A DNA stretch of 64,000 nt from Terriglobia bacterium (GTDB lineage: Bacteria; Acidobacteriota; Polarisedimenticolia; Polarisedimenticolales; CAVOVZ01), in contig CAVOVZ010000027.1 of the NCBI GenBank assembly GCA_963699985.1, positions 16,128 to 80,127 of the forward strand. The letters are read 5' to 3'. A program made the position numbers and the translations under genes. Positions 27,471-63,906 of this stretch are shown here, piece by piece (the stretch's first letter is position 1; each line of letters opens with the position of its first letter). Under the pieces are notes generated by a model. It was not told the origin of the DNA, searched no databases, and saw nothing but the letters and a program-made list of their open reading frames with translations.

Positions 27471-27480
27471 AAGGAGGATC

Positions 27481-32642: not shown

Positions 32643-32658
32643 AGTGGCCTCGATGCTG

Positions 32659-39075: not shown

Positions 39076-39585
39076 TCCTCCGCTCCTCCTCGTCTCCCGC
39101 CGGGACCCGCTCCAGAAGCATCCGGGCGATCCGATCCCGCATGTCTTCGTCCGGGACCTCCTTCTTCACGATCCCGATGAACAGGTCGACCAGGCCGCGC
39201 CTGTCGGCCTCGGCCTGGGCGCGGATCTGCTCCTCGGTCTGACCGTCGAGCGACAAGCCGCGGGCGAGCCGCTGGCCCTTCTGCGCCCGCTCCAGGATGC
39301 CGGCACCTCCTTGAGCCCTTCGATGCCCATCGTCTTCTCGCTCTGCAGCGTCTCGAAGAGCTGCGAGACCACGACACCCCAGAGCTTGAAGTGCGAGCGT
39401 TCAGGGTCACGCGCTCGCTGGCGAGTTTCTCGACCAGCTGCTCCGCGGCCTTCCGCTCGATCTTAGACGGAGACCGTCCCAGTCCTCTTCCTTCTTCCAG
39501 GTGCCAACCGTGTGCGCCTTGTCCTCAGACGCCGGGCGATCTCGGCCACCGATGGGGCCTCGCCCGTCAGGAAGAGCGCCGGGCC
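39076..39585 (-). pseudogene. Terminase small-subunit-like HTH protein, frameshifted
   Basis: Fragments SVAEIARRL.., KAHTVGTWKKEEDWD, KIERKAAEQLVEKLASER, VVSQLFETLQSEKTMGIEGLKE, LSLDGQTEEQIRAQAEADRRGLVDLFIGIVKK in shifting frames. Confidence 0.4.
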
Positions 39586-39599
39586 TCCTCACGCTTGCT

Positions 39600-40254: not shown

Positions 40255-40285
40255 GTCTCCTGGTCGGTGTCTGACGTTCAGTTCG

Positions 40286-41387: not shown

Positions 41388-41905
41388 CGCTTCACCATCG
41401 CCATGGCGGCAGTCCTGCAAGCAGTTCGCCTCATGACGCAATCGCCTTCTGATCCGCTTGATGTTGCTGGGAACCCGAGCACTCCTTGCCTCGACGCGGA
41501 ACGGACCGCGAAAGGAGACCACGATGGGAACCGAGAAGCAGGAGAAGGAAGGACGGAGGTCAAGAGCAAGCGAACCAAGGGGAGACGAAGGGCTGCGAAG
41601 GCGAAGCCACGAACGACGCCGAAGAAGGAGAAGGCGCCGAAAGAGAGAAGATCTGCCGCGTGTTCGCTTAGGGTCGCGACGCCGAGCGGACGCGTTCCAC
41701 AAGGCGACCGGGCCGCGGGCGCGACCCGGTTCCCCGCGCGGTGATGGCGTCTTCGCCAACGGGGACGAGACGGCGTTCCGCGCGCTGGTGAAGGAGGCTC
41801 GCGAAGCCCGAGCCTGATCCCACCGCATCGAGACGGCCCGCGGGTGGCGACGCTCGCGGGCCGTCCGTCCCTCTGGGCGTTCGGGATCGCCTCGAAAGAC
41901 GGCGT

Positions 41906-46406: not shown

Positions 46407-46897
46407 ATGGCGGACGGCGTGATTGCACAGATCCAGGCTCTCAAGATGATGAGCGTCGCTGAGCTGCAGGCTCGCTGGCGCGAGTTGTACGGCGAGGACA
46501 CCCGATCGCGGAACCGAGAGTTCCTCTGGCGGCGGCTGGCGTGGCGGGTCCAGGAACTCTCCCACGGCGGCATCTCCGATCGCGCCCGGGCCCGGATCGC
46601 CGAGCTCGCCCCGGATGGGTTCGAACGCGCTTAACGCCGCGGACCCCGGCTCCGGTGGACGTCTCCGCCCCGCCGCCCCGACCCAAGACGGTCCGCGACC
46701 TTCGCCTCCCCTCGCCCGGGACGGTCATCAGTCGGACCTGGCGCGGCCGTGAGCTACGCCTGCTGGTGATGGAAGGCGGATTCGAGCTGAACGGCACCTG
46801 CTACGCATCGTTGAGCGAGGCGGCACGAGCGGCGACGGGCGCGCACTGGAATGGGAAGTTGTTCTGGGGCGTGACGCAGCGGAAGCGGAGATCCTGA
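46407..46897 (+). pseudogene. DUF2924-like protein, one frameshift (~46630)
   Basis: VIAQIQALKMMSVAELQARWRELYGEDTRSRNREFLWRRLAWRVQEL, then in a second frame LPSPGTVISRTWRGRELRLLVMEGGFELNGTCYASLSEAARAATGAHWNGKLFWG. The stop overlaps the recombinase ATG. Confidence 0.65.
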
Positions 46898-49063: not shown

Positions 49064-49648
49064 ATGCCCTACCTCAGCCCCCCAACCCTCACCGCCGACG
49101 AACAGAAGCTGATCCTGCGCGCTACCATCGGCAACATTCGGGACCACGTGATCTTTTCCCTGGCCCTCGGCACCGGCCTCCGCCTCGCCGAGATCGTCGG
49201 GCTCAACGTCGGCGACGTGTTCACACCCGATGGCGCGCCCCGGGTTCGCGTCCGCATCCGCGCCGCGATCGCGAAGGGTCACCGGGCCGGGGATGTATTC
49301 CTTCCCGATCGGCTCCTGCCGAAGCTGAAGCGGTTCTGGACTCACAAGACGAAGCGCGGGGAGGGACTCCAGCCTGCCGATCCCCTCTTCGCAAACCAAT
49401 CCCGCCACCGGATTTCGAAGCGGCGGGTCCAGTTCGCCTGGAGGACGTGGCAGCAGAGGGCGGGGTTCGATCGGCTGTACCCGTTTCATTCCATTCGCCA
49501 CAGCAGTATCACGAACGTGTACCGGTCGTCCCGCGACCTCTTCCTGGCGCAGAGGTTCGCGAGGCACGTGAGCCCGTTGACGACGGTGGTGTACACGCAT
49601 CCGAGCGACGACGAGATGGCCAGGAGGGTGTGCGAACTCCCCTGCTGA
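49064..49648 (+). CDS. Short tyrosine recombinase (catalytic domain only, 194 aa)
   Basis: GGAGGA upstream. LALGTGLRLAEIVGL (Arg), HSIRHSSITNVY (HxxR), ARHVSPLTTVVYTHP (His..Tyr). Confidence 0.85.
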   Translation: MPYLSPPTLTADEQKLILRATIGNIRDHVIFSLALGTGLRLAEIVGLNVGDVFTPDGAPRVRVRIRAAIAKGHRAGDVFLPDRLLPKLKRFWTHKTKRGEGLQPADPLFANQSRHRISKRRVQFAWRTWQQRAGFDRLYPFHSIRHSSITNVYRSSRDLFLAQRFARHVSPLTTVVYTHPSDDEMARRVCELPC

Positions 49649-50112: not shown

Positions 50113-50390
50113 TTCCAGCCGGGAGATGCACTCTTCTGTAACTACTCCCGCCGCTGGATCTCGAAGAGGCGGATCCAGTTCGCGTGGCGTACTTGGCGGA
50201 TAAAGGCCAAGTTCGATCGGTTGTACCCCTTCGATGCGATAAGACACAGCGCCGTGACTTCTGTCTGCCGGATGTCCAAGGACTTGTTCCTGGCCCAGAG
50301 ATTCGTAGGCATTCCTCGAGGTTGGCGACGACCGTCCACACCCATCCCTCGGACCAGGAGATGGCGGGCCGGTTGAGACGGTTGCCCTGA
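50113..50390 (+). pseudogene. Tyrosine-recombinase 3' fragment, copy 2 (frameshifted)
   Basis: QPGDALFCNYSRRWISKRRIQFAWRTWRIKAKFDRLYPFDAIRHSAVTSVCRMSKDLFLAQRF, then a frame change, then LATTVHTHPSDQEMAGRLRRLP-stop. Parallels residues from QPADPLFANQSRH of 49064-49648. Confidence 0.8.
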
Positions 50391-51519: not shown

Positions 51520-51635
51520 CTTCGAGGCCGCGTGCAGAATGGTTCGCTCGGCATGCTTCGCCGTCGATTACGGTTATCCACACGCACCCCTCGGGCCAGG
51601 AGCTGGCGAGCCAGATTCGCGCGTTGCCTTACTGA
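51520..51635 (+). pseudogene. Tyrosine-recombinase 3' fragment, copy 3 (short)
   Basis: EWFARHASPSITVIHTHPSGQELASQIRALPY-stop vs QRFARHVSPLTTVVYTHPSDDEMARRVCELPC-stop. Confidence 0.7.
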
Positions 51636-52147: not shown

Positions 52148-52513
52148 ATGGGTCTCATAGCAGGATGGCTCTTCCGAAGGGCCTACTACAGCCGGCTGGG
52201 TTCACCACACTGCCCCAAGTGCATCGTATTCGGTGGACGAGAGACTCGGATGAAGCGCGACGGCGGAGGCTTCTTCAAATGTGAAGTCTGCGGCTATGAG
52301 GAGTGGCCGACCCCAAGGATAAGGAGTTCGGAGACCGCATTCGTGCTGAGTACTTTGCCAAGAAGGAAGAGGCACCATGAAGGATCTACTCACGCAGCGC
52401 CTCGGTCTGGGCCTAGAGCTGCTCGGGGAAGTCGATATGCCGCCACACCAGCCGGAGGCCGAAGCCGCTACCTCAGCGAATCCTTCCAAGTTGGTCCGCC
52501 TGTCCGCCAATGA
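52148..52513 (+). CDS. Small zinc-ribbon protein (3' end uncertain)
   Basis: GGAGGAG upstream. MGLIAGWLFRRAYYSRLGSPHCPKCIVFGG..FFKCEVCGYEEW. After ~52310 a different frame looks more coding-like (KDKEFGDRIRAEYFAKKEEAP-stop, overlapping the next ATG). Confidence 0.4.
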   Translation: MGLIAGWLFRRAYYSRLGSPHCPKCIVFGGRETRMKRDGGGFFKCEVCGYEEWPTPRIRSSETAFVLSTLPRRKRHHEGSTHAAPRSGPRAARGSRYAATPAGGRSRYLSESFQVGPPVRQ

Positions 52514-52949
52514 GCGCGAGCAGCCCGTCGTCACAGTGAAGTTCGGCCAGTTCGTTGAGTGGACCCATGACGTCGGGAGATACCAGCGGAACAGTGTTAA
52601 TGACGTCGATGCCACGCCCGCAGTGCTCGCGTTACGCGACCCCTCACGTGCTGACTCGAGGTCGGCTGCCGCCGGGGGCGACCCGCTGTTCCTTAATCAG
52701 TCCCGCCGGTGGATCTCGAAGCGCTGGGTCCAGTTCGCGTGGCGGAGGTGGCAGAAGGGGGCCGGGTTCGACCGGCTGTACCCCTTTCAGTGCACGAGGC
52801 ACACGGCCGTGACCTCCGTCTACCGGATGTCCAAAGACCTGTTCCTGGCGCAGCGGTTCGCCCGGCACGTCTCGCCGCTGACGACCGTCGTCTACACGCA
52901 CCCCTCGGACCAGGAGATGGCTCGGGAGATTCGCGGGCTGCCGTGCTGA
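52377..52949 (+). CDS. Chimeric ORF: novel ~100-aa N-terminus fused to tyrosine-recombinase 3' fragment, copy 4
   Basis: MKDLLTQRLGLGLELLGE..VKFGQFVEWTHDVGRYQRNS.., then DPLFLNQSRRWISKRWVQFAWRRWQKGAGFDRLYPFQCTRHTAVTSVYRMSKDLFLAQRFARHVSPLTTVVYTHPSDQEMAREIRGLPC-stop. Intact frame. Confidence 0.55.
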   Translation: MKDLLTQRLGLGLELLGEVDMPPHQPEAEAATSANPSKLVRLSANEREQPVVTVKFGQFVEWTHDVGRYQRNSVNDVDATPAVLALRDPSRADSRSAAAGGDPLFLNQSRRWISKRWVQFAWRRWQKGAGFDRLYPFQCTRHTAVTSVYRMSKDLFLAQRFARHVSPLTTVVYTHPSDQEMAREIRGLPC

Positions 52950-53070
52950 TGCTGGGATACCCACCGAACGGGTCACGTTTCTTCTTTCCCCCACCCCGGT
53001 TCCGATGTAAAAGACACAGGATGTCGTTCGGAAGCGGCATCTGCCCATGCGGCGAAGGAGATGATGAAGA

Positions 53071-53868
53071 ATGCGAATCGCACCCGCGATCGTGATCCTT
53101 GGCGTCAGCTCGAGCTTGTTGTGTTCCGCGGCATCCCCAGCGGCTCCGACCGAACCTGCTTCTCCCACCGCATGCGCGGGGTGGCGCGTGTCCGAGTTCC
53201 CCCAGGGAACGCGATACCGGACCGTTGTCCTCCACATGAAAAAGGCCGGCAAGGAAGCAAGCGTCCGATCTGTCGAGGACTTCGTGCTTGTTCCGTTCCA
53301 CCGCAAGTTCGCTGGTGGGGACGTGGCCGGCACCTATCGATTCTGGAAGCCAGGCGGCTGGATTCTGACCGACCAGGCAGCTTCGTTTCGAACGACGGCC
53401 GACCTGGCGGTCGCAGCCGAGAAGTACTTGATACAGCAGTGGGGTGACCCTCTCCTGCCGAGGCGAATGATGTCGTCGCCGACGGAAGCAATCAACGCAC
53501 AGACAGCCGGGAAGGCCGCTGGCGTTGCCGCTGGGTCCTCAGTATTCGAGATGCTCCTCGGCGGCGCGATCTTCGGTTCGCTGGCCAAGGAGTTCGTCGC
53601 GATCGCAGAAGGCGTGGACTGGGAAAGCGCCGAATGCCGTGCTCGCGCGAGGCTGCTCGTCGTTTCGAGTGCCGCCTGGCCAGAGGGTTCGCGTTTGGTC
53701 ACCGTCGCCGTTTCGGCGATCGGCGCCAGCGAGAAGGAAGTGCTCCCGGAGGATCTTGAGGCGGTGCGACAGATTCTCAGGCCGCCGCTCGTGACGCCAG
53801 CAACCGATGCTCCAGGATCGCCCCCGGACCCGGCAACCGGTCCCGATGGCTCTTCGCGACAGGAGTAA
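53071..53868 (+). CDS. Secreted/lipoprotein-like hypothetical protein
   Basis: GAAGGAG upstream. MRIAPAIVILGVSSSLLCSAAS leader. 265 aa. No family recognised. Confidence 0.6.
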   Translation: MRIAPAIVILGVSSSLLCSAASPAAPTEPASPTACAGWRVSEFPQGTRYRTVVLHMKKAGKEASVRSVEDFVLVPFHRKFAGGDVAGTYRFWKPGGWILTDQAASFRTTADLAVAAEKYLIQQWGDPLLPRRMMSSPTEAINAQTAGKAAGVAAGSSVFEMLLGGAIFGSLAKEFVAIAEGVDWESAECRARARLLVVSSAAWPEGSRLVTVAVSAIGASEKEVLPEDLEAVRQILRPPLVTPATDAPGSPPDPATGPDGSSRQE

Positions 53869-53900
53869 CGGACGAACCCGCCACGCGAACGGATCTCCCG

Positions 53901-54082
53901 GCTGTTCCCTTCCCCAACCCGACCGAATCCGTCCGGTTTCCCGCTTCTCCGTCGTCGTGTTTGGGTGTAGAACCTCCCCAGGTTTGCCACCCGAGGGGGG
54001 TAGCCATGGCCCGCCTGTTCGCAGCCTCCATCCTCATCGTCGCCGTTCTTCCCGCCCTGGCCAGCGAGCCGGGGCAGCCGCT
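53901..54082 (+). repeat. 5' leader/signal-peptide cassette, copy A
   Basis: About 185 bp collinear with 59482-59662 (ggtttcccgcttct.., gggtgtaSaac, atggcccgYctgttcgcagcc..gccgttctYcccgccctggccagcgagcYggggcagcc). Confidence 0.85.
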
Positions 54083-54854
54083 GGATTGCAGCGACTGGGT
54101 GTTCGTGGAGCCGGGGCTGTCCTGCACCACTTGGATTCCGAACCCGTGTGACGAACGATATCCACCATGCGCCACGTCTGGCATACGGGAGGCGTTCGAC
54201 AACCAGGGGCGCATGTACTACACGCGAATGATCCTCAGTATCCGCGTCGAGAGTTGCGGCGGCATCGATCGTGTTGAACTCCGCCGCTACGACGGCGCGT
54301 CGGACCAGTTAGTCGCTTACATCGAGTCGCGTTGTGTCGATGGTTCTGGCTCGGATTCCGTAGCCGGTGGCGATGACATCCTCTTTGATGACAAGGCCGG
54401 GCGTTTCATAACCCTCCTACGAGACTACTGCTACGGCCCGTCTTGCAACTACTCTCCCGGCCATTGGAAGGCTGCGCTCGGCGGTTTCGCGACGACATTT
54501 GACGTTCTCCACACCTACACACCACAAGCCGCGCTGGGGTTCCGCGTCCCCTACATGCCCGAAGGCCTCCCCGCCGCCGACCACTTCGACACCTACACCG
54601 GCGACATCGCCACGCTCGGGGACTTCTCCCAGGCGCAGCCGCTGCAGTGCGACTACCCGACCGCACCGCCGAGCGTGGGCGACTACCTCACCGTGAACGA
54701 CAGCCTCCCGAATCCCGTGGTCGGGAGGGGCCGCTACTACGTCACCGCCGCCACGTACCAGGGACAGACCCGATACGGGCGCAAGGGATTCCGAGGCCAG
54801 TTGTCCGGTCGCGATCCCGCGCTCCTGCCCGCCTGCATCCCGCCCGGACCCTGA
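54006..54854 (+). CDS. Secreted Cys-rich protein with divergent CP-type C-terminal module
   Basis: Signal peptide MARLFAASILIVAVLPALASEPGQP. C-terminus HFDTYTGDIATLGDF..C..NDSLPNPVVGRGRYYVTAATYQGQTRYG..LLPACIPPGP-stop. Confidence 0.75.
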   Translation: MARLFAASILIVAVLPALASEPGQPLDCSDWVFVEPGLSCTTWIPNPCDERYPPCATSGIREAFDNQGRMYYTRMILSIRVESCGGIDRVELRRYDGASDQLVAYIESRCVDGSGSDSVAGGDDILFDDKAGRFITLLRDYCYGPSCNYSPGHWKAALGGFATTFDVLHTYTPQAALGFRVPYMPEGLPAADHFDTYTGDIATLGDFSQAQPLQCDYPTAPPSVGDYLTVNDSLPNPVVGRGRYYVTAATYQGQTRYGRKGFRGQLSGRDPALLPACIPPGP

Positions 54855-54869
54855 CACGGAGGACGCCAT

Positions 54870-55010
54870 GCGCCTCGCATTCATGGCGAGATTCTCGAGC
54901 TGGGCATCGAGGTCTCCCAGGCAACCGTTGCCAAGTACATGCCGCTACGCCGCAAGCCGCCCTCCCCTATCTGGCGAGCGTTTCTCGACAACCACTTGAA
55001 GCAGATCGCA
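54870..55010 (+). pseudogene. Transposase/integrase N-terminal fragment
   Basis: RIHGEILELGIEVSQATVAKYMPLRRKPPSPIWRAFLDNHLKQIA. This motif is typical of rve-type IS transposases (from memory). No remainder of the gene. Confidence 0.45.
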
Positions 55011-55025
55011 AATGAGGAGGAATTT

Positions 55026-55423
55026 ATGGGCCCACGTTCTAGATCCGACAAGGCACCAGCGTGGACGCGTAAGGCCGTTACAGTGGGAAGTGTCTTTCTG
55101 ACTCTCGGAGCATCCTCTCTGGCATCAGCGACGCAAGTGACTTTCCGCGTCCTTGACCAACTCGGTCAGTCGATTCCTGGCTCGACCATACTGGTAGACA
55201 GCCAGGAACTCTCACAGGGCGATACAATCAGCCTAACGCCTGGCCCATACGCGGTCTTCGTGCGGCCCGGCAGGGATGGCAGTCCCGGTGTCAATCGATT
55301 GGAACGTGTTGACAGTCTCGAAGTCGCTGGCGAGTCGCAACTTGCGGACTTCGTGTGGAGAACAGGGTTGCTCACAGTCCGAATCGTCGACCAGAACGAT
55401 GTGCCGATTCCCGCGTCACAATG
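55026..55423 (+). pseudogene. 5' part of the 95-aa-repeat secreted protein, split by an IS
   Basis: AGGAGG upstream. MGPRSRSDKAPAWTRKAVTVGSVFLTLGASSLASA signal. First (divergent) repeat ends ..LTVRIVDQNDVPIPASQ at the IS border. Confidence 0.8.
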
Positions 55424-57740
55424 CAGGGCTCCTGACCTGATCTGAGATTTCCTACGATTTTGCTTGCATCGAGACGGGATGTGGCATATCATTAGTGCCA
55501 CATATGAATACCAAATCGCTTCTCCCCCGCCTGCCTCTGCTTCCTCCAGCCGCGGAGATCGTGAGCACGGACCTCGCGGTCGTCCGCGAAGACGGCAAGG
55601 TGGTCTTGTTCAACGCTGGAGGCCCGATCTACGAGTGTCGTCAGGATGACCGGGTCAGCGTGCGTCTTGGTGTGGCCATCGCGGCGGCGCTGCGGCTGGC
55701 GCCGGTCACCGCGTTGGCCGCGACATTCGGTATGGATCGCGGAACGTTGCATCGCGACCGGGCCAAGCTCGCAGCGGGCGGCATCGAAGCGCTTCAGCCG
55801 AAGAAGCGTGGACCGAAGGGACCGTTCAAGCTGGATGCCACAGCACTTCGGAGCGCGCAGCGCGCCCTCGATTCCGGCGCTTCGCAGCGCGAGAGCGGAA
55901 AGCAGGCAGGGGTGAGTCACTTCGCGATCTATCACGCGATTCAGAAGGGCCTGCTGAGTCGGCCGGAGAAGCGAGCAGCCGTTCCTGTGATTGCTGGTGC
56001 TTCGACCGACGATACGCTGATCCGGTCTGGCGTGCGGGCCGCGGAGGATCAATCGTGCGAAACCGGGGTGGCGGTCAAGCGCACCGCAGAGCGAGCGCTG
56101 GCGCGATCCGGCCTGCTCGCCGAGGCCGCACCGGTGTTCGAGGCGGCAGAAGGTGTTCCTGGCGCAGGGGTGTTGCTGGCGCTGCCGGCGCTGCTCGAGG
56201 AGGGATTGCTCGAGGTCGGAACGAAAGTGTATGAGGGATTGCGCAACGGGTTCTTCGGCCTTCGCTCGGTTTTGCTGACGTTCGCGATGATGGCCCTCTT
56301 GCGGATCAAGACACCCGAGCAACTCACCGAACACGCCCCTGGTGAGCTCGGTCGTCTGTTGGGCCTCGACCGTGCACCCGAGGTCAAGACGTTGCGTCGC
56401 AAGCTGCGCGAGATGGGCGAGCGTGGACTGGCGCGGACGTTCATGCGGCTGCTCACCGAGCGCTGGGCACGTGCGACCCCGAGAGAGCTCGCGTTGCTCT
56501 ACGTCGACGGCCATGTCCGCCCGTATCACGGGCGGACCCAGGTGCTCCCCAAGCACCACGTCCAGCAACGGGGCCGGCCGATGCCGGGGACCAAGGATTT
56601 CCACGTCAACGATCGTCGCGCCGACCCGCTGTTCTTCGTCACTGCGGAGGCGACCGAGAGTCTCCTCGCGATGCTGGACTCGACCCTGCTGCCTGAGGTG
56701 CGACGTCTGGTCGGGCCCGGTCGGCGCGTGACGATCACCTTCGATCGGGAGGGCTGGAGCCCTGAGCGGTTCGCCAAGTGGAAGGACGAGGGCTTCGACG
56801 TCCTCACCTACCGGAAGGGGCAGTCGTCGCGGTGGCAGGAGCGGTTCTTCCGCACGGTCGCGGGGACGGTGGGTGGGGAGGAGGTCGAGTACCGGCTGGC
56901 CGAACGCACCGTGACGCTGTCCAACGGTCTGCGCGTCCGCGAGATCCGGCGCCTCACGGACGACGGCCATCAGACGGCGGTCATCACGACGAGCGAGAAG
57001 CTCCCGCTACTCGCGGTCGCGCACCGGATGTTCTCGCGGTGGCGGCAGGAAAACTTCTTCCGTTACATGCGGCACGAGTTTGCGCTCGATCACCTCTGTA
57101 CCTACGAGGTCGAACCCGCCGATCCCAAGCGCGAGGTGGCTCACCCGGAACGCGCCGCGCTGACGAAGCGACTCGCCAGGGTTCGAAGCGATCTGGCGCG
57201 GCTCGAGAACAAACGCTTCGACATGCGGTCCGGAGGACGGGTCCGTGTCGGCCAGCGCAGGCTGTCCGAGAAAGAGCTGGACCAGGTGATCGCGCGGCGA
57301 GACGAGGAGATCGATCGCTTGGAGCTCCGGATCGCCGCGCTGCCGAAGCGGGTGACGATCGATTCCATTCTCGACCCGTCCGAGATCGTGCAGCTCGAGC
57401 GTGAGCGCAAGGTGCTCGTCGATGCCATCAAGCTGATCGCCTACCGCGCCGAGTCCGCGCTGGCCCGACTGATGGCACCTCTCCTTGCTCGACACGACGA
57501 GGAGACGAGGAAGTTCCTGAAAACGGTTTTCCAAGCCACGGCTGACATCATTCCGGACCGAGGTGCACGCCGTCTCACGGTGCGCTTCCACGGCTTGGCC
57601 AACCCCAGGATGACCCGCGCTCTCGGCGAGCTCTGCGCCTTGGTCAACGAACATGACGCTCTGTACCCGGGCACGAACCTCCGGCTCCATTTCGACGCGC
57701 CGGTGTCGCAGGAATGATCCCGCTCAGGTCAGGAGCCCTG
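55424..57740 (+). mobile_element. 2.3-kb insertion sequence (IS4-superfamily-like, unclassified)
   Basis: 17-bp inverted repeats CAGGGCTCCTGACCTGA (55424-55440) and TCAGGTCAGGAGCCCTG (57724-57740). 5-bp direct repeat CAATG (55419-55423 and 57741-57745). Excision in silico recreates the repeat-junction sequence seen at 58015-58047. Confidence 0.9.
55495..57717 (+). CDS. DDE transposase of the 2.3-kb IS
   Basis: 740 aa (an ATG at 55504 is also possible). N-terminal HTH regions. LLYVDGHVRPY, ITFDREGWS, FSRWRQENFFRYMRHEFALDHL (DDE/YREK-like). Confidence 0.85.
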   Translation: MPHMNTKSLLPRLPLLPPAAEIVSTDLAVVREDGKVVLFNAGGPIYECRQDDRVSVRLGVAIAAALRLAPVTALAATFGMDRGTLHRDRAKLAAGGIEALQPKKRGPKGPFKLDATALRSAQRALDSGASQRESGKQAGVSHFAIYHAIQKGLLSRPEKRAAVPVIAGASTDDTLIRSGVRAAEDQSCETGVAVKRTAERALARSGLLAEAAPVFEAAEGVPGAGVLLALPALLEEGLLEVGTKVYEGLRNGFFGLRSVLLTFAMMALLRIKTPEQLTEHAPGELGRLLGLDRAPEVKTLRRKLREMGERGLARTFMRLLTERWARATPRELALLYVDGHVRPYHGRTQVLPKHHVQQRGRPMPGTKDFHVNDRRADPLFFVTAEATESLLAMLDSTLLPEVRRLVGPGRRVTITFDREGWSPERFAKWKDEGFDVLTYRKGQSSRWQERFFRTVAGTVGGEEVEYRLAERTVTLSNGLRVREIRRLTDDGHQTAVITTSEKLPLLAVAHRMFSRWRQENFFRYMRHEFALDHLCTYEVEPADPKREVAHPERAALTKRLARVRSDLARLENKRFDMRSGGRVRVGQRRLSEKELDQVIARRDEEIDRLELRIAALPKRVTIDSILDPSEIVQLERERKVLVDAIKLIAYRAESALARLMAPLLARHDEETRKFLKTVFQATADIIPDRGARRLTVRFHGLANPRMTRALGELCALVNEHDALYPGTNLRLHFDAPVSQE

Positions 57741-58595
57741 CAATGGGGTGGGCCCTACCTTCCGGGTGAGTACCCCAACGAAGCAACGTTGGTTCTTCCC
57801 GTAACCGAGGATCCACTCGCACCCCCGGCACAGGGTCTGCTGGCTACAGGTTATGTGCTTACCGTCAGGCCCGGTCGCGACGGCGCTCCGGGTCTCAACC
57901 GACTCGAAAGAAACGAAGACCCAGTTGAGTTGGCTGTGACTGGCATCGTCCATGACGCGGAATGGAAGACTGCCCCGCTCACAGTCCGAATCGTCGACCA
58001 GAACGGTGTGCCGATTCCCGCGTCACAATGGGGTGGGCCCTACCTTCCGGGTGAGTACCCCAACGAAGCAACGTTGGTTCTTCCCGTAACCGAGGATCCA
58101 CTCGCACCCCCGGCACAGGGTCTGCTGGCTACAGGTTATGTGCTTACCGTCAGGCCCGGTCGCGACGGCGCTCCGGGTCTCAACCGACTCGAAAGAAACG
58201 AAGACCCAGTTGAGTTGGCTGTGACTGGCATCGTCCATGACGCGGAATGGAAGACTGCCCCGCTCACAGTCCGAATCGTCGACCAGAACGGTGTGCCGAT
58301 TCCCGCGTCACAATGGGGTGGGCCCTACCTTCCGGGTGAGTACCCCAACGAAGCAACGTTGGTTCTTCCCGTAACCGAGGATCCACTCGCACCGCCAGCT
58401 CAGGGGCAACTGGCAGTTGGATATGCACTCACGAGTAAGCCCGGATTGAACGGAATGTCGGGCACGAGTTACCACTTGTTTCGCGCCGAGGAACCCCAAG
58501 AACTGACTTCCGCAGGTCTTGTGAAGAATCTCGAGTGGGAGACATCGAGCGGAGAGCTTCGAGTTGTCGACGTCATTGAGCACGAGGTTCTTGGG
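57741..58595 (+). repeat. 285-bp (95-aa) tandem repeat, 3 copies
   Basis: Units start at 57741, 58026 and 58311. The first two read identical. The third diverges after ~85 bp. An older divergent unit precedes the IS. Confidence 0.9.
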
Positions 58596-58790
58596 TCGTT
58601 CTTCGAGATCGCGTCCATTCCTCTTTCGCCCTCTGGATCCTTGATTTCGCTACCCGTCAATGATCTCACTGTGTATCCGACGATGGGGGGAGTGTACGCG
58701 GGAGGTTACGGAGACTGCCGGATCCGGGTGGCGTCCGGACTCCACTCGGTGGCCCCTTCGATTTCACGTTTCGCTCCGGAAGGGTCGTGA
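57741..58790 (+). pseudogene. 3' part of the 95-aa-repeat secreted protein
   Basis: Continues WGGPYLPGEYPNEATLVLPVTEDPLAPPAQG.. in the repeat frame after removal of the IS. Confidence 0.8.
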
Positions 58791-59248
58791 GTCCGCCGTT
58801 CGTTCAGATCGACAAAGGGTCTTATGGGCTGCGGTTCCAACCGTGCCCTAGTTCGCCGGATTCGGACGCGGACGGTCACGCGGATGTTTGCGACTGCCAA
58901 CCGAATGATCCCGCAGTGTATGCCCCCCCCGGTGCGGTTTCGACAATAGGGTGGGATGTGTCCAAGACCGTCTTCTCATGGGACACGCTGGCACCGATCA
59001 GCGGGACCGCGACGGCTTACGACGTCATCCGAGGGGCCCTCGGAGAACTTCCGGTAGGGGCGGGGATAGAGTATTGTGTGGAGTCAGGCGGCGCGGATAC
59101 TATGACGACAGACTCGCTCGGGCCTGTGGAAGGGCAAGGCCTCTGGTACCTGGTTCGCGGCCGGAACTCGTGCGGCACGGGGACCTACGGATTCCAGGGC
59201 CACAACGGGGTGGCCACCTTGGAGCGGAACTCCAACGTGTGCCCGTAG
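58787..59248 (+). CDS. CP-module protein (TSP3-like linker + C-terminal module); possibly the detached 3' end of the preceding gene
   Basis: GTG overlaps the previous stop (GTGA). DSDADGHADVCDCQPNDPAVYAPPG..FSWDTLAPISGTATAYDVIRGALGELPVG..GQGLWYLVRGRNSCGTGTYG..NSNVCP-TAG. No signal peptide of its own. Confidence 0.65.
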   Translation: MSPPFVQIDKGSYGLRFQPCPSSPDSDADGHADVCDCQPNDPAVYAPPGAVSTIGWDVSKTVFSWDTLAPISGTATAYDVIRGALGELPVGAGIEYCVESGGADTMTTDSLGPVEGQGLWYLVRGRNSCGTGTYGFQGHNGVATLERNSNVCP

Positions 59249-59332
59249 CGCGATTTCCCCAGCGGATGCGCTCGGGACGGCCACGCCACGTCGAGGCCGG
59301 ATCGTCACGGCGACGCGGGTGGCGAAAGCGAC

Positions 59333-59392
59333 GGCATCCTCGTCCAGGACAGCGCGGAGAACGAGAGGCCGAACGGGAATCCGTGTCCGTGA
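59333..59392 (+). repeat. CP-tail DNA relic, copy 4
   Basis: GILVQDSAENERPNGNPCP-TGA. In frame with, and 47 codons beyond, the TAG stop of 58787-59248. Confidence 0.8.
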
Positions 59393-59481
59393 CGAAGCAG
59401 CTGGCGCAGCTCGGGGCGGTGTAAGAGAGGAAGGAAATCGGGGCGGCGATTTGGGTGGCGAGGATGGGGTGAGGAGCCAAG

Positions 59482-59662
59482 CTGGTCCCTTTCCCCTCCT
59501 TAACCCGACTCAATCGGTCCGGTTTCCCGCTTCTTCCCCACCGCGTATGGGTGTACAACGGTCCCAGTTCCGCAATCTGAGGGGGGGCATGGCCCGTCTG
59601 TTCGCAGCCGCCGTCCTGCTCGTTGCCGTTCTCCCCGCCCTGGCCAGCGAGCTGGGGCAGCC
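59482..59662 (+). repeat. 5' leader/signal-peptide cassette, copy B
   Basis: Collinear with 53901-54082. Encodes MARLFAAAVLLVAVLPALASELGQP. Confidence 0.85.
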
Positions 59663-59770
59663 TCGGACACTCACGTTCGTGGACCGCGTCGCAGCCCAGC
59701 GAGCCTTCGAAGAGGTCTACTGGCGGAACCGGATCTGGCCCAAGGACAACCCCTCGCCACTTCGTGAGAT
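59589..59770 (+). pseudogene. Truncated N-terminal fragment of a paralog
   Basis: Signal peptide, then RTLTFVDRVAAQRAFEEVYWRNRIWPKDNP, which parallels RDLTFEDRVKAQEAIERVHYSHQIG of 18298-21156. Coding character is lost thereafter. Confidence 0.5.
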
Positions 59771-59829
59771 TTCCACTTGCTTCTGGCAGGCTCCTGACTC
59801 ACCGCGCGACAGCGCAGGGAGGTCCGGCG

Positions 59830-62800
59830 ATGTTCACCGGCAAAATCGGCTACTCGTTCCAGAATGTCACTCGTGGCCTGGTCTCGGTTCTGGCGCTCTC
59901 GTGCTTCCTGTCGACCGCGAACGCCACGGACAGGTGCGGTTCGGTCTGCAACGAGACCTGGACCCTCGGCGGGAGTCCATATGTCGCAACCTGTGACGTA
60001 ACGGTCGCGGCGGGATGCTCTCTGACGGTCGACGCCGGCGTCGAGGTGAGATTCGTCGCGGCGGCCGGGCTCGTCATCGACGGGAGTCTGAACGTGAACG
60101 GCACCGCCGCGAACGCCGTCGTCTTCCAATCGAGCGCCCCGTCCCCCACGCCCGGCAGCTGGGACGGACTGAGGCTCCAGGGATCGGGGCAGGCGACGAT
60201 CGACCATGCGGCAGTCAGCTACGCGGTCAGCGGCGTGTACGCGACGGGCAATGCGGTGATGAATCTGAGCGGGACCTCAGTGGACCACAGCAGCAGCTAC
60301 GGTATCTACGTGGATTCCCGTGCCGCGGTGACGCTGACCGGCGTGACGTCGCGGTACAACCGATTTGGTCTTATCGTGTACGGCTCCTCGCCGCCGCCCG
60401 TGGTGACGTCGACGGGCGGAACGTTCACCAACAACACTCTGTACGGGGTCTCCGTCGTCGGGCCCACGGCGACGGTGTCGGTGCGCGGCGGCGCGATCCA
60501 CTCGAACGGGGGCGGCTACGATTTCACCGCCGAGAGCTTCGCGAACGCGGGAGAGCGTGTGGTGGATGCGACCGGGAACTGGTGGGGGACGACGTCTGCG
60601 GCTGCGATTGGGCCGCGGATCCTGGACCACGGGGACCAAGCCAGTTCGCCGATTGTGGACTGGTGCGGTTACCTGGCGAGCGCCGGGGGTGTGCCGTGGC
60701 TGGACGTGCACTGTCCGGACCTGGCGGTGTGCGGAGAGACGGCGAGCTGGGACCTGACCGACAAGCCGTACTACATGACGTCGGACGTGGTGGTGTGCCC
60801 GACGGGGACGCTCGAGATCGGCCCTGGGGTGAATGTGCGAGCCGCGGCTGGGGCGAGCGCGGGCATCGTGGTGGACGGCACGCTGCACGTGAACGGTACG
60901 GCGGGGAGCCCGGTGGTCTTGACCTCGGACGCCGCGGTTCCGGCGGCTGGGAACTGGGACGGAGTGAAGGTCGAGGGATCAGGGCAGGCGACGATCGACC
61001 ACGCGACGGTGAGCTACGCGGGGAGCGGGGTGAACGCCACGGGCAGCGCGACGGTGAGCCTCGACGGGACGGCGGTGAGTTACTCGACCAGCGGCGTGTA
61101 CGCGACGGGCAACGCGGTGGTGAATCTGACCGGGACCTCAGTGGACCACAGCAGCAGCTACGGTATCTACGTGGATTCCCATGCCTCGGTGACGCTGACC
61201 GGCGTGACGTCGCGGTACAATCGGTTTGGTCTCATCGTGTACGGCTCCTCGCCGCCGCCCGTGGTTACGTCGACGGGCGGGACGTTCACCAACAACACGA
61301 CCTACGGGGTCTCCGTCGTCGGGCCCACGGCAACGGTGTCGGTGCGCGGCGGCGCGATCCACTCGAACGGGGGCGGCTACGATTTCACCGCCGAGAGCTT
61401 CGCGAACGCGGGAGAGCGTGTGGTGGATGCGACCGGGAACTGGTGGGGGACGACGTCTGCGGCTGCGATTGGGCCGCGGATCCTGGACCACGGGGACCAA
61501 GCCAGTTCGCCGATTGTGGACTGGTGCGGTTACCTGGCGAGCGCCGGGGGTGTGCCGTGGCTGGACGTGCACTGTCCGGACCTGGCGGTGTGCGGGGAGA
61601 CGGCGAGCTGGGACCTGACCGACAAGCCGTACTACATGACGTCGGACGTGGTGGTGTGCCCGACGGGGACGCTCGAGATCGGCCCTGGGGTGAATGTGCG
61701 AGCCGCGGCTGGGGCGAGCGCGGGCATCGTGGTGGACGGCACGCTGCACGTGAACGGTACGGCGGGGAGCCCGGTGGTCTTGACCTCGGACGCCGCGGTT
61801 CCGGCGGCTGGGAACTGGGACGGAGTGAAGGTCGAGGGATCAGGGCAGGCGACGATCGACCACGGGACGGTGAGCTACGCGGGGAGCGGGGTGAACGCCA
61901 CGGGCAGCGCGACGGTGAGCCTCGACGGGACGGCGACGGAGCACAACACGCACGGCGTGTACGTGGACACTCGATCGACCGTCACGATGACGGGGGTGAC
62001 GTCGAGGTACAATCAGAACGGTCTTACGGTGAAAGGCTCCTCGCCGCCGCCCGTGGTTACGTCGACGGGCGGCATGTTCACCAACAACACGATCTACGGG
62101 GTCAACATCGATGGCCAAGGGTACGGAGCCAAGGTCTGGGTCGGCGGTGCGAGCATCCACTCCAACATCGGCACCTATGATTTCTTCGTCTCCGGCTTCG
62201 CCAACCCGGCCACGTCTCTCGTCTGGGCTCCGGACTGCTGGTGGAGAACGAACGACATCGCAGCGATCCGTATCCGCATCTACGACCGAGAGGATAGTGC
62301 CTCCAGTCCCCGCGTCTGGTTCCGGCCGTTCGGTGGCGATTGCGAGCGGGCCCTCGGCGGCGACGCTGATCGAGATGGCCTCGGCGACTTCGAGGACAAC
62401 TGCCCGGCGACCCCGAACGCCGCCCAAACCGACGCCGACGGTGACGGGATGGGTGATGCGTGTGACCCCGCCGTGGCGACGCTTCCCGCGGGGGTCTGCG
62501 ACGGCATCAACGACACGTTCGAAGGCCACGTGGACTCCGACGGTGACGGGTGGGGTGACCCTTGCGATTTCCAGCCGACCCGCGCCGATTCGCATCCCGG
62601 TGCCGTGGAGCGTTGCGATGGGAGGGACAACGACGGCGACGCGGGTCTCGCCGAGGGCGAGGACGTGGACGCGGACCTGGACGAGGCGCTCGCCTGCGGG
62701 GACTGCGCCGATCTCGACGCCGCGATCTACCCCTGTGCCTGCGAATCGTGCACCAACCTGATCGACGACGATTGCGACACGCTCGTGGACCTGGCCGACT

Positions 62801-63123
62801 CCGCATGCGCGAGCTGGCCGGCTTGCATCATCATCTCCCCGGGTCCTGAGCCGGTGCTGACGATGAGACGGGGGGCGTGCGTCGGCGGCGGACCGGCGGG
62901 GCCCTACGAGGTGATCCGTGGAATCCTGGATCAGCTGCGGATCGCTGGAGTCTCGGTGGACCTTGGCACCGTGGGCTGCGTCGCCAGCAATCTAGTGTTG
63001 GATCGGACCAGCGAGACTCCGCGGCAGGAACCACGGCATGCAACGACGTTTCCTACTTTCTCGCCCGCGCCGAGGACGCCGGCGACTTCGGCCACGCAAG
63101 CGGTGGGGCGCCACGGGACGTGA
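59830..63123 (+). CDS. Secreted parallel beta-helix repeat protein with TSP3 repeats; CP module reached only after a frameshift
   Basis: MFTGKIGYSFQNVTRGLVSVLALSCFLSTANA signal. Repeated ..GxxxxxVxxNxxxGIYV.. (PbH1-like) turns. DADRDGLGDFEDNCP, DADGDGMGDACD. Near 63015 the frame changes; the +2 frame continues DSAAGTTACNDVSYFLARAEDAGDFG..NPDPPCP-stop at 63149. Confidence 0.8.
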   Translation: MFTGKIGYSFQNVTRGLVSVLALSCFLSTANATDRCGSVCNETWTLGGSPYVATCDVTVAAGCSLTVDAGVEVRFVAAAGLVIDGSLNVNGTAANAVVFQSSAPSPTPGSWDGLRLQGSGQATIDHAAVSYAVSGVYATGNAVMNLSGTSVDHSSSYGIYVDSRAAVTLTGVTSRYNRFGLIVYGSSPPPVVTSTGGTFTNNTLYGVSVVGPTATVSVRGGAIHSNGGGYDFTAESFANAGERVVDATGNWWGTTSAAAIGPRILDHGDQASSPIVDWCGYLASAGGVPWLDVHCPDLAVCGETASWDLTDKPYYMTSDVVVCPTGTLEIGPGVNVRAAAGASAGIVVDGTLHVNGTAGSPVVLTSDAAVPAAGNWDGVKVEGSGQATIDHATVSYAGSGVNATGSATVSLDGTAVSYSTSGVYATGNAVVNLTGTSVDHSSSYGIYVDSHASVTLTGVTSRYNRFGLIVYGSSPPPVVTSTGGTFTNNTTYGVSVVGPTATVSVRGGAIHSNGGGYDFTAESFANAGERVVDATGNWWGTTSAAAIGPRILDHGDQASSPIVDWCGYLASAGGVPWLDVHCPDLAVCGETASWDLTDKPYYMTSDVVVCPTGTLEIGPGVNVRAAAGASAGIVVDGTLHVNGTAGSPVVLTSDAAVPAAGNWDGVKVEGSGQATIDHGTVSYAGSGVNATGSATVSLDGTATEHNTHGVYVDTRSTVTMTGVTSRYNQNGLTVKGSSPPPVVTSTGGMFTNNTIYGVNIDGQGYGAKVWVGGASIHSNIGTYDFFVSGFANPATSLVWAPDCWWRTNDIAAIRIRIYDREDSASSPRVWFRPFGGDCERALGGDADRDGLGDFEDNCPATPNAAQTDADGDGMGDACDPAVATLPAGVCDGINDTFEGHVDSDGDGWGDPCDFQPTRADSHPGAVERCDGRDNDGDAGLAEGEDVDADLDEALACGDCADLDAAIYPCACESCTNLIDDDCDTLVDLADSACASWPACIIISPGPEPVLTMRRGACVGGGPAGPYEVIRGILDQLRIAGVSVDLGTVGCVASNLVLDRTSETPRQEPRHATTFPTFSPAPRTPATSATQAVGRHGT
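60229..61950 (+). repeat. 861-bp (287-aa) near-identical tandem duplication
   Basis: agcggcgtgtacgcgacgggcaa.. occurs at 60229 and 61090. Long stretches (60400-61020 vs 61261-61881) differ at only isolated positions. A third, diverged unit follows. Confidence 0.9.
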
Positions 63124-63237
63124 TGAACCCGGATCCGCCATGTCCGTGATTCCGCCTGCGCCGCGGCAGCGCGCGGCCTGCTGGCTACCGCCTCGGCAGG
63201 AAAGTTCAAGAGACAGCGAGCGCGTCGCGACCGTCGT

Positions 63238-63470: not shown

Positions 63471-63832
63471 CCAGGGTTCGAACCGCCGACCCGCCGGTTA
63501 ACAGCCATGACCTGAAGAGAGCCGCCGTCCCTCCGTGAGCTTCCGGCTCGCCGGGGTCTCGTTTCCGCCGGTCGCGGACCAAGGCAACCTCGCCGAGGGG
63601 AAGGACGCTCCGGGAGCTCCTGGGCCTCCGACGGGGGGGGCGGCGACCTCCGCGGCTCACGTTCGGCCTCCCGGTGGGGAACACCCCCACCCCACCGGGA
63701 ACCACTCCCGGTGGGTGAGGGGGGAGGTCCGTGTCCGTTGCAGCGCTCGCCAACGGGTCGATGGCACCCGGCCTCCGTGTGACCACCGCGTGACCGCGAC
63801 TGCCGCGACCGACGCGAATGAGCTAGGAAGAA

Positions 63833-63906
63833 TGGCTGAGGGGGCTGGACTCGAACCAGCATGACCGCATTAACAGTGCGGCAGGTTGCCGTTACCTCAC
63901 CCCTCA
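63833..63906 (-). tRNA. tRNA-Asn (anticodon GTT)
   Basis: Minus strand TGAGGGG TG AGGT AACGGCA ACCT G CCGCA CTGTTAA TGCGG TCAT GCTGG TTCGAGT CCAGC CCCCTCA G CCA. All four stems pair perfectly. CCA is encoded. Confidence 0.92.

Follow-up and report, generated by a model that had tools for sequence, protein, structure and literature searches.

The Borrelia erp/mlp families with their upstream homology boxes, the vlp/vsp genes of Mycoplasma and the msp2/p44 genes of Anaplasma have conserved 5' and 3' ends and undergo concerted evolution by gene conversion. In the vsa locus of Mycoplasma pulmonis and the vpma locus of Mycoplasma agalactiae, the latter with the recombinase Xer1, site-specific recombination moves a block consisting of promoter and signal peptide onto alternative gene bodies. 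Loci of this type possess a single expression site, a fixed recombination site and inverted copies. In integrons, the attC sites are imperfect inverted repeats (R''-L''...L'-R') that form a hairpin. Moreover, integrating elements such as tRNA-targeting islands, or e14 and phage 21 at icd, leave partial 3'-end duplicates of their target gene.

Here, we describe a junction at positions 59249-59662 of the window, i.e. the whole stretch of 64,000 nucleotides that was analysed. With a probability of about 0.65, we regard it as the fossil of a boundary between two adjacent genes, designated B and A, of a module that recurs in Acidobacteriota. Like the concerted surface-protein families, the locus has a near-identical leader and signal peptide combined with strongly different mature parts, mosaic 5' and 3' relationships, and truncated pseudogene pieces near intact copies. 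However, the two conserved ends at the junction come from two different neighbouring genes, the relics are ends only and contain no variable donor segment, no single expression site exists, the host belongs to a free-living soil lineage, and the assemblies do not vary here. Six-frame scans with the A-family and C-terminal (CT) domain HMMs returned end fragments only (59589-59663 and those starting at 27777, 29951 and 59315) and no donor pseudogenes with middles of the msp2, pilS or vls type. A literature search on the name of the lineage yielded nothing on these genes. The junction marks a recombining and decaying gene array in a soil Acidobacteriota genome, and there is no sign of a programmed switching device.

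Remnants of the B and A genes at the junction

The A family consists of uncharacterised secreted proteins of about 285 amino acids with at least 369 homologues, none of which carries a Pfam domain. The N-domain is the only part that AlphaFold models confidently (pLDDT of about 90), and it had no match in the PDB. B-type proteins are those carrying a C-terminal domain of about 120 residues that ends in Cys-Pro. Four parts have been kept at the junction (Table 1): ~75 nt from the 3' end of a B gene, the spacer leading from B to A, and the promoter/5' UTR and signal peptide of an A gene. To the left, another gene (54939-59248) has taken the place of the B body. To the right, the A gene has lost its body, and 35 codons from a third family of secreted proteins follow the signal peptide in frame; this fragment is itself cut off upstream of a beta-helix gene. 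As a gene, the junction is probably non-functional, and the leader may still drive transcription of the downstream gene.

Table 1. Features of the junction and related elements in the window
Feature	Positions	Strand	Evidence
B-type 3' domain (TSP3 repeats and Cys-Pro domain), TAG-interrupted	26977-27337	+	CT HMM; homologue in L004
Degenerate A leader and signal peptide (MIRLFADTIALPSASAIVLGQ..), marginal	27366-27470	+	nhmmer E 0.015 (27366-27442); alignment A1
B-tail relic behind small ORF	27777-27848	+	blastn, nhmmer, CT HMM
B-tail relic behind Lcl_C-domain gene (29241-29909)	29951-30043	+	blastn, nhmmer, CT HMM
Intact reference copy: leader (53898-54005) and A gene (54006-54854, 282 aa)	53898-54854	+	homologues; alignment A2
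C-terminal Cys-Pro domain of upstream gene	58859-59248	+	CT-domain HMM positions 2-120, E 1e-24
B-tail relic, last ~23 codons (..DGILVQDSAENERPNGNPCP, TGA)	59315-59392	+	blastn, nhmmer; CT HMM positions 98-120, E 5e-4
Intergenic spacer, B tail to A leader	59393-59481	+	partly conserved with L004 and L005 (GGCGGCGATYKGGGTGGCGA ... GAGRAGCY); alignments
A-family leader (promoter/5' UTR)	59482-59588	+	five copies, 75-90% identity
A-family signal peptide, 25 codons (MARLFAAAVLLVAVLPALASELGQP)	59589-59663	+	A-family HMM positions 1-25
Third-family in-frame fragment (RTLTFVDRVAAQRAFEEVYWRNRIWPKDNPSPL)	59664-59765	+	homologues P0137-P0145
Downstream gene: own signal peptide, beta-helix/NosD repeats, TSP3/MopE repeats, Cys-Pro tail	59830-63149	+	ORF list, Pfam

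The relic of the B tail aligns with the intact B tails at 27278-27337 of the window and at 16550-16619 of locus L004, and the similarity between the copies stops at the stop codon (alignment A3). The sequence-only reading had placed this relic at 59333-59392, followed by a leader/signal block collinear with 53901-54082, and both features were recovered. Positions 59333-59390 match three other sites of the window (27789-27846 with 81%, 27288-27334 with 87.5% and 29996-30041 with 85% identity) at E-values of 6e-10 to 3e-7, and a search of the window with the tail profile returned these four sites and no others. In the leader/signal block, 59491-59662 is 80% identical to 53905-54079 over 175 nt (E 2e-40), and a profile built from five copies scores the copy at 59482 at E-values of 9e-54 to 1e-54. 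Given these values, the homologous junctions in L004, L005 and metagenome loci and two further assemblies with identical sequence, the probability that chance similarity or mis-assembly created the junction is negligible. This explanation would suit weak sites only, namely 27366-27442 and 63725-63760, where a possible fifth copy of the leader had been proposed and no profile match was obtained at E<10. Locus L001, which derives from a second assembly, equals the window over 52311-59764 with a sole difference at 57324-5, and L003 from a Logan assembly is 100% identical over 58364-59652. Thus, an assembly artefact is ruled out.

No Pfam or NCBIfam model matched the Cys-Pro domain, and a Pfam fn3 hit was not obtained either. 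Its AlphaFold model (pLDDT 75, pTM 0.71) was paired by Foldseek with the Fn3 domains of titin, integrin and cytokine receptors at probabilities of 0.97-1.0 and TM-scores of 0.45-0.6, with E-values of only about 0.01, and the fold is predicted to be Fn3-like.

The gene upstream of the relic (54939-59248) encodes a repeat protein, is broken up by an insertion sequence (IS) and a change of frame at 58787, and stops with TAG at 59246-59248. Its own tail and the relic at 59315 are alike at the protein level only. The 47 codons following the TAG are open and in frame with the relic; since the chance of such a stretch is about 0.3, no meaning is attached to it. Read-through or recoding of the TAG was considered and rejected: the relic is also in frame in L027/L044, but in L030, L040, L021 and at 29951 of the window it lies in another frame or behind an interrupting stop codon. 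Two independent in-frame cases among about eight agree with chance. A structured RNA or an attC-like site in the tail was likewise rejected on the basis of RNAalifold, which gave a consensus of -4.07 kcal/mol with no covariation and no conserved RNA structure, and of folding the tail with 70 nt of downstream sequence at 22 loci, where the z-scores were around 0 for most loci (range -3.45 to +2.19). Furthermore, no conserved inverted repeat or hairpin was found in or 3' of the tail.

The leader/signal block (59482-59662) comprises about 107 nt of untranslated leader and the 25 codons of the signal peptide, which is near-identical in the homologues P0022, P0024, P0027 and P0039. Five DNA copies of the block were identified: the window copies w53898 and w59482, one in L004 (9891) and two in L005 (9891 and 2588). 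A core of 33 nt (59502-59534; AACCCGACTCAATCGGTCCGGTTTCCCGCTTCT) is invariant in the other four copies and carries 3 changes in the 59482 copy, with flanking and coding positions varying. The core is followed by GGGTGTACAAC and a G-rich ribosome-binding site. The invariance of the core may reflect function rather than conversion. The junction could have been kept as an active promoter/operator, formed by the leader and perhaps also by the final 30 nt of the tail, which would drive expression of the short chimeric ORF and of the beta-helix gene (59830-63149); such a regulatory role would be compatible with a fossil origin. The core holds an imperfect palindrome (AACCCGAC-N7-GTCCGGTT), and the ATG, the ribosome-binding site and the frame of the signal peptide are intact at 59589. 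Moreover, window and L005 are 87% identical over the final 30 nt of the relic, compared with about 65-70%, including indels, in the adjacent spacer. Thus, these 30 nt are better kept than a purely dead relic should be, which speaks against the fossil reading. However, a scan of 59200-59900 for sigma-70 promoters and terminators revealed nothing, and relics are present also at loci where no A gene follows. A pyrimidine tract could plausibly pair with the ribosome-binding site, but covariation is absent in the five sequences, and a structured leader RNA was not retained; an Rfam scan of the window returned a cobalamin riboswitch and tRNA only. The core was absent from 185,579 species-representative genomes, which were searched with a 25-base-specified pattern, and a 28-base version had no hits in the JGI metagenomes. 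Thus, its conservation is shallow in time. On balance, we consider a working regulatory unit possible, if rather unlikely.

The A signal peptide has lost its own gene body. The fragment that took its place is truncated to about 35 codons and corresponds to the mature N-terminus of large secreted proteins. Its homologues P0137-P0145 match 59664-59765 with 54-80% identity and have their own, unrelated signal peptides. The resulting chimeric ORF continues to 59996. In the downstream gene, the Cys-Pro tail that ends at 63149 lies in a different frame, which indicates a frameshift near 63000-63100, and L001 is identical to the window across this frameshift.

The A/B module and the replacement of slot genes

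In the intact module, an A gene with leader, signal peptide and ~285-aa protein alternates with a B-slot gene, which encodes a variable passenger protein with the ~120-aa Fn3-like Cys-Pro end. This adjacency is the usual state in other contigs of Acidobacteriota: the order B then A was found in L013, L012, L019, L037, L039 and L041, and the order A then B in L004, L005, L017 and L038. In L048, an intact A gene comes after a tail relic. In L005, the syntenic order is the 3' end of an A gene (93% identical to the window), the genes Y1 and Y2, a tail relic, the spacer, the leader and an intact A gene; the window has different genes in this slot, and its A gene is truncated. Positions 54883-59300 of the window and 8397-9770 of L005 have nothing in common, whereas their flanks are 85-93% alike. 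The earlier proposal of a conserved tail-then-leader repeat stands, except for the fifth copy and for the assumption that both are conserved ends of one gene family with unrelated middles: the tail belongs to the B family and the leader to the A family, which are neighbouring genes. Termini of a single mobile element would have refuted the sequence-only reading, but tail and leader have their homologues in the coding ends of genes that are intact, and the relics are thus not such termini.

The same elements are found in the region between 26 and 30 kb. Two isolated tail relics that had been suspected there (27789-27848 and 29966-30043) matched in blastn and with the tail profile. For a further pair of tail relic and degenerate leader at 27259-27470, the tail turned out to be the true end of the gene 26266-27337, and the leader is marginal. 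This gene has an in-frame TAG at 27205-27207, where the L004 homologue has GAG; it amounts to a plain GAG-to-TAG change and was not taken for recoding. The degenerate leader begins 29 nt past the stop codon of the B gene and is followed by a small ORF (27481-27756). The relic at 27777-27848 has its own ATG at 27753, which overlaps the stop codon of the upstream ORF, and the relic at 29951-30043 is devoid of a start codon and preceded by an in-frame TGA at 29933.

The surroundings of the junction contain an IS, recombinase fragments, a nonsense codon and frameshifts. The local IS has 22-nt inverted repeats at 55419-55440 and 57724-57745, which are unrelated to tail and leader. A family of small, catalytic-domain-only Xer-like tyrosine recombinases is present with four copies in the window, some of them fragments, and also near A genes or tails in L004, L008, L014, L017, L020/48, L025, L027 and L031. 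A Xer-like protein of 194 aa is encoded at 49064-49648 of the window. A reverse transcriptase in L004, the sole one seen, is carried by a 4.1-kb insertion that interrupts the B gene and suggested a diversity-generating retroelement; this idea was dropped because the 40 ORF segments of the window that were scanned gave no match to reverse transcriptase (RVT) models.

Short tail relics behind unrelated genes occur in 10 of the 32 metagenome loci with the tail pattern, and an A gene or A fragment lies upstream in 7 of these 10. Detection of the relics relied on a probe that covers the final 25 nt of the tail; this biases the choice of relics seen and inflates the apparent conservation of the tail. 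The 5' ends of the relics cluster within about 30-150 nt of the stop codon, and an unrelated stop codon lies 0-70 nt upstream of each. This clustering is tighter than random deletion predicts and hints at a more specific mechanism. One such mechanism would be live cassette capture, in which the Xer-like recombinases would use the B tail and the leader/signal block of A genes as specific recombination sites and the slot would provide promoter and signal peptide. Besides the clustered 5' ends and the recombinase family shared by the window and other loci, the recurrent order of A gene or A 5' end, unrelated gene(s) and tail relic (27366-27848 and 54006-59392 of the window, L005, L021, L025/L029, L030, L040 and L044) is in line with this mechanism. 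Moreover, L030 and L040 share one relic and differ by one gene inserted beside it, and two breakpoints of the window, after GGGCAA (27470) and after GGGCAGCC (59662), fall within 3 nt of each other. As in integron cassettes and CALIN elements, unrelated ORFs on the same strand are each followed by a repeat of about 60-90 nt at a distance of 0-70 nt, and three repeats lie within 2.8 kb at 27.3-30.0 kb, as in integron arrays. Unlike attC, however, the repeat is a coding gene end that is kept in sequence and not in structure, and it has neither R''/R' inverted cores nor a hairpin. No integron integrase reached the family score either: against TIGR02249 and NF011946, the recombinases of the window scored at best 51 and 27 bits (cut-offs of 265 and 435, respectively).

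The vsa and vpma loci offer a second comparison. Here as there, a block of promoter and signal peptide is fused in frame to unrelated bodies (59589 of the window and L044, where the 5' end of an A gene was independently fused to an SRPBCC protein), and Xer-like recombinase genes are nearby. Unlike in vsa and vpma, intact A genes all come with a leader of their own, and in the A genes of the window (wA), L004 and L005 nothing is missing from leader, ribosome-binding site, ATG or signal peptide. Moreover, the copies share one, direct orientation, and no conserved site was found. The fusion or break points differ, being located after GQP (59662), after GQ (27470) and after DCSDWV, seven codons later than at 59662, in L044. 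Further points against cassette capture are the range of the 5' boundaries of the tails (45 to 150 nt), the many products that are out of frame or truncated, the partial decay of the recombinase copies and the single arrangement in three assemblies. We therefore consider live capture improbable, and give equally little credit to the idea that B tail and A leader/signal bound a hot-swappable slot, in which unrelated genes are placed behind a common promoter and signal peptide.

The relics might also be duplicated attachment sites, if integrative elements targeted the 3' ends of B genes and carried a short copy that remained as a partial direct repeat, with an intact tail at the opposite end of the insert. 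As in the 3'-end duplicates left by known elements, short 3'-terminal fragments follow a B copy as direct repeats on the same strand (27278-27337, 27777-27848 and 29951-30043). The relic of L048 is preceded by a recombinase ORF at a distance of about 50-120 nt, and that of L023 is located 16 nt behind a DNA methyltransferase gene; a gene of this kind adjoins the same recombinase in L014. Furthermore, the window is rich in islands and harbours a tRNA-Asn gene at 63833-63906. However, most relic loci are devoid of an intact B gene upstream and have the foreign gene directly after the A gene, the inserts at 27338-27776 and 27849-29950 encode no integrase or other recombinase, the relics vary in length, and the gene upstream of the relic at 59315 has a tail that is unrelated at the DNA level. 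We consider this explanation very improbable.

Mosaicism among the A paralogues

The preferred reading, a decayed boundary between B and A genes, agrees with the relationships among the A paralogues. The leader/signal block is 75-90% identical in the five copies, whereas the middles cannot be aligned as DNA. Among the four-fold sites, 12 of 53 differ between A paralogues in the first 30 codons, and the conserved 3' region has 51 differences at 112 such sites (p 0.006). The wA gene is closest to L004 at its 5' end (90%) and to the L005b gene at its 3' end (93%). Accordingly, the sites that wA shares with the A gene of L004 (L4A) versus L005b (L5b) number 22:10 in the 5' block and 4:38 in the 3' block (Fisher p 1e-7). 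The L5b gene, whose two IS-separated halves are assumed in this test to be one gene, shares sites only with L5A or only with wA in ratios of 20:8 (5' block) and 3:47 (3' block; Fisher p 2e-9). The copies w53898 and w59482 lie in one window. The source of L004 and L005 is another assembly of sample ERZ25039459, and they have an IS1595 copy in common with the window that is 98.7% identical. These two loci may hold paralogues of one genome or belong to related strains, and in the latter case the apparent gene conversion could partly be recombination between strains.

We propose that exchange of the 5' block between paralogues by gene conversion would account for the high DNA identity of leader and signal peptide in at least five copies, to which constraint on a common regulatory core probably adds. 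The B tail, the 5' block and the 3' end of A genes would serve as short conserved anchors for recombination, and the DNA between these anchors would be replaced, leaving remnants at the junctions only.

The sequence-only reading had suggested a paralog array homogenised by gene conversion. The junction is indeed an array boundary and the paralogues recombine; the part of the suggestion that fails is a single gene with swapped middles. The idea of surface-protein variation by swapping of middles finds no support, as none of the loci has an expression site with silent cassettes and the pieces are pseudogenised. A variation locus was also expected to vary between assemblies. Only one arrangement was present in the three assemblies, which counts against active switching. 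Thus, the mosaicism of the A genes and the different slot contents support gene conversion and slot replacement, and they do not support a programmed variation system.

Implications for soil Acidobacteriota

The analysis exposes two protein families that are widespread in soil Acidobacteriota and for which no database model exists, namely the A family (~285 aa) and the Fn3-like Cys-Pro domain (~120 aa). The latter is found on many large secreted proteins, and A genes and genes for Cys-Pro carriers are alternating neighbours. Relic tails and orphan signal peptides like those described here will otherwise be mistaken for small ORFs or for read-through extensions during annotation. The in-frame fusions of promoter and signal peptide at 59589 and in L044 are small natural cases of secreted proteins that gain new heads. 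If the slot reading were true, the A leader and signal peptide would be a natural trap that provides promoter and secretion signal, in a cassette system distinct from integrons, and the co-located catalytic-domain-only Xer-like recombinases might help. If the replacement of slot genes is catalysed, it would represent a new kind of gene-capture system. Recombination in these arrays seems to be guided by short coding patches of high conservation, and thus the ends of the genes outlast their bodies.

Order of the junction and its neighbourhood

The sequence-only reading had noticed a gene-tail relic followed by a leader and signal peptide at 59249-59662, and this observation proved to be real. 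Using 59249-59700 as the blastn query against the window (G+C content 66%), 59491-59662 aligned with 53905-54079 (80% over 175 nt, E 2e-40), and the tail at 59333-59390 matched 27789-27846, 27288-27334 and 29996-30041 with 81-87.5% identity. Profile searches with nhmmer detected four tails within the window and five strong leader/signal copies, of which two are in the window; the other three lie on related contigs. Moreover, the junction is identical in the assemblies L001 (contig_47041 of ERZ25039459) and L003 (Logan assembly of ERR11561443), and it is thus genuine. Two degenerate copies had also been proposed: the leader at 27366-27442 is marginal (nhmmer E 0.015), and at 63725-63760 the profiles found no leader/signal copy.

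The junction involves two kinds of genes, namely the A family of secreted proteins, represented by the intact gene wA, and B-type genes ending in a Cys-Pro C-terminal domain. In L004 and L005, B comes next after A and its start codon overlaps the stop codon of A; in L017 and L038, A directly precedes B. The order B then A occurs in L012, L013, L019, L037, L039 and L041. The A gene of L048 has a tail relic in front of it instead of an intact B gene. Thus, the order tail, spacer, leader and signal peptide is what normally marks the step from B to A in an array in which the two alternate. L005, which shows synteny with the window, contains an A gene (3' end 93% identical to wA), the genes Y1 and Y2, a tail relic, spacer, leader, an intact A gene (P0039) and B. 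In the window, wA is followed by a remnant of the beginning of Y1 (~54868), a repeat-protein gene that an insertion sequence (IS) interrupts, the tail relic, spacer, leader and a truncated A.

Coordinates of features in the window and in related contigs
Feature	Sequence	Position	Remark
wA, intact A gene	window	54006-54854	leader 53898-54005
Leader and signal DNA copies	L004	9891-10089	
Leader and signal DNA copies	L005	9891-10089; 2588-2788	
Intact, more divergent Cys-Pro domains at gene ends	window	12404-12787; 28857-29210; 58859-59245	
B-type gene examples	L004	10894-12171 plus 16315-16620	
B-type gene examples	window	26789-27337	
B-tail relic	L005	9771-9826	
B-tail relic after SRPBCC gene	L027	6035-6091	
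B-tail relic after SRPBCC gene	L044	1641-1703	
IS	window	55419-57745	Transposase_29 protein 55495-57717
Xer-like recombinase copies or fragments	window	49064-49648; 50212-50384; 51534-51626; 52377-52949	
Beta-helix gene	window	59830-63149	~860-nt internal repeats 60209-61074 and 61070-61935, 96% identical
Large serine recombinase	window	46897-48477	
Interrupted homologue	L004	1304-6287	
4.1-kb insertion	L004	12172-16314	
Genes of a putative prophage or island	window	30128-43053	TIR-domain gene, DDE transposase, terminase fragment, D12 methyltransferase, DnaB-like helicase
tRNA-Asn	window	63833-63906	right end of window
153-nt (51-aa) tandem unit	window	7040-12250	~34 copies, 60-88% identity
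ORF containing the 153-nt repeats	window	4376-12790	2804 aa; ends with Dicty_CTDC repeats and Cys-Pro domain
Cobalamin riboswitch	window	15390-15614 (-)	83 bits; upstream of TonB-dependent receptor gene 13375-15483 (-)

The A family and its 5' block

The uncharacterised A family has at least 369 homologues of ~285 aa and matches no Pfam domain. Conserved parts are the mature N-terminus ASEPGQPLDCSDWVFLEPG and the C-terminal ~110 residues, with a variable stretch between them. P0022, P0024, P0027 and P0039 have signal peptides nearly identical to that in the window, yet they share only 52-58% identity overall. Four copies share an identical 33-nt leader core, AACCCGACCGAATCCGTCCGGTTTCCCGCTTCT, from which the copy at 59482 deviates at three positions. 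In another MAG, A paralogues (L008 vs L009) are alike in their coding part only, with no common upstream leader, and the core was not found in species-representative genomes or JGI metagenomes. Therefore, the leader block is specific to this lineage, which is probably Acidobacteriota of the class Polarisedimenticolia, as suggested by one named homologue of the Cys-Pro domain in the upstream gene.

At four-fold-degenerate sites, wA and the A genes of L004 and L005 differ at 12/53 positions in the first 30 codons, at 51/112 in the conserved 3' region and at ~72% in the middle. In the 5' block, wA is nearest to the A gene of L004 (90%) and L005b, the other A gene on L005, to its neighbour L005 A (90%). 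In a 3' block of 157 nt aligned without gaps, wA and L005b share 93% and all other pairs 64-72%. The site-pattern tables of the two blocks differ (p 2e-9 and 1e-7). This incongruence supports the view that the 5' block has been exchanged between paralogues, or between strains; the gene conversion suggested previously thus finds support for the A 5' block.

The 5' block also occurs in chimeric genes. Past the 25-codon signal peptide, the frame of the ORF at 59589 runs on as RTLTFVDRVAAQRAFEEVYWRNRIWPKDNPSPL, the mature N-terminus of a different family, made up of large secreted proteins (P0137-P0145, 54-80% identical) that have unrelated signal peptides of their own. Since this similarity ends at ~59765 and a beta-helix gene with its own signal peptide begins at 59830, the ORF is a truncated in-frame chimera. 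L044 is an independent case, in which the A signal peptide and ASEPGQPLDCSDWV are joined to an SRPBCC protein; the homologue in L027 has its own N-terminus. P0142, a member of the RTLTF family, begins with MARLFCAAS, like the A signal peptide, which raises the possibility that the A 5' block spread to this family more than once.

The B tail and replacement of B bodies

The tails are the final 23-30 codons of a C-terminal domain of ~120 residues with the consensus ..DGEGD.CDLDDGLIY...Y.EWQ.E.GF.SWN.YRGDLAVLR..G.YTQ.PGSN.LA...C....D..P..G...F.LVTGV.GG.E.SLGT.SAG..RPNANPCP-stop, for which Pfam and NCBIfam hold no model. Its AlphaFold model (pLDDT 75) resembles Fn3 domains in Foldseek searches (probability ~1, TM 0.5-0.6, E ~0.01). 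The subfamily with DNA-similar tails consists of B-type genes, in which F5/8-type-C, TSP3 and MopE repeats precede the domain. The window B gene (26266-27337) has TAG at 27205 vs GAG in L004 and looks 5'-truncated as well. Similarity among tail copies ends at the stop codon, their 5' limits differ, and no conserved RNA structure was found in the tail. Comparison of 15 intact genes showed DNA conservation to be highest in the last ~20-25 codons (75-84% vs 52-68% upstream), with the final nine codons biased by the search probe.

The pattern AGGCCGAACNNNAAYCCGTGTCCGT retrieved 32 loci from JGI metagenomes. About 20 are ends of long ORFs (321-2111 codons where uncut by a contig end), and ten are short relics from ~7 independent events, located 0-70 nt 3' of the stop codons of unrelated genes, including those for an SRPBCC protein, a SAM methyltransferase, a DNA methyltransferase and small proteins of unknown function. 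Where upstream sequence is available, the relic lies behind an A gene or a fragment of one (e.g. L021, L025, L030, L040, L044). Repeated replacement has therefore removed the B body, beginning directly behind the A gene and sparing the last ~30-150 nt of B, and short conserved patches would have served as recombination anchors. On an evolutionary time scale, the content between conserved flanks is seen to be replaced. In L020/L048, an A signal-peptide relic lies 20 nt after a tail relic, a junction-only fossil like that of the window. The relics in L027 and L044 directly follow the TAG of the SRPBCC gene in frame and differ by a 6-nt in-frame indel; this arrangement was judged to be due to chance, though it is the only hint of a translated extension.

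Mobile elements, decay and the origin of the junction

The IS, which has 22-nt inverted repeats and is flanked on either side by CAATG, is cleanly inserted in the repeat-protein gene, and its removal restores the frame PASQ/WGGPY. The window also holds a large serine recombinase and, at 30-53 kb, a probable degraded prophage or island, as the gene set at 30128-43053 suggests. In L004, the homologue of the serine recombinase gene is split by a tandem of three tyrosine recombinase genes, similar to a recombinase-in-trio element. The insertion in the L004 B gene, which splits it precisely where the Cys-Pro domain begins, contains a 584-aa ORF and, on the opposite strand, codes for a 484-aa reverse transcriptase (RVT_1); it may be a group II intron or a different kind of retroelement.

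Frameshifts are also present. At 58787-58790, a 358-aa repeat ORF (stop at 58790) and the Cys-Pro-domain ORF (start GTG at 58787) overlap in GTGA, which is either a single frameshifted gene or two coupled ORFs; the Logan assembly confirmed the sequence. The Cys-Pro tail of the beta-helix gene is in another frame, implying a frameshift near 63000-63100, and two assemblies differ by many small indels in this gene region.

A recombinase might have catalysed the replacement. The four Xer-like copies or fragments belong to a family of ~190-aa, catalytic-domain-only tyrosine recombinases (far below family cut-offs), which recurs in the vicinity of A genes or Cys-Pro tails in L004, L008, L014, L017, L020/48, L025, L027 and L031, so a catalysed mechanism is conceivable. 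However, no fixed site or hairpin was found, nor any alternative arrangement in the three assemblies. The programmed surface-variation locus proposed earlier is not supported. The best reading of the junction is that it is debris from an A/B array undergoing recombination; its leader may still be active.
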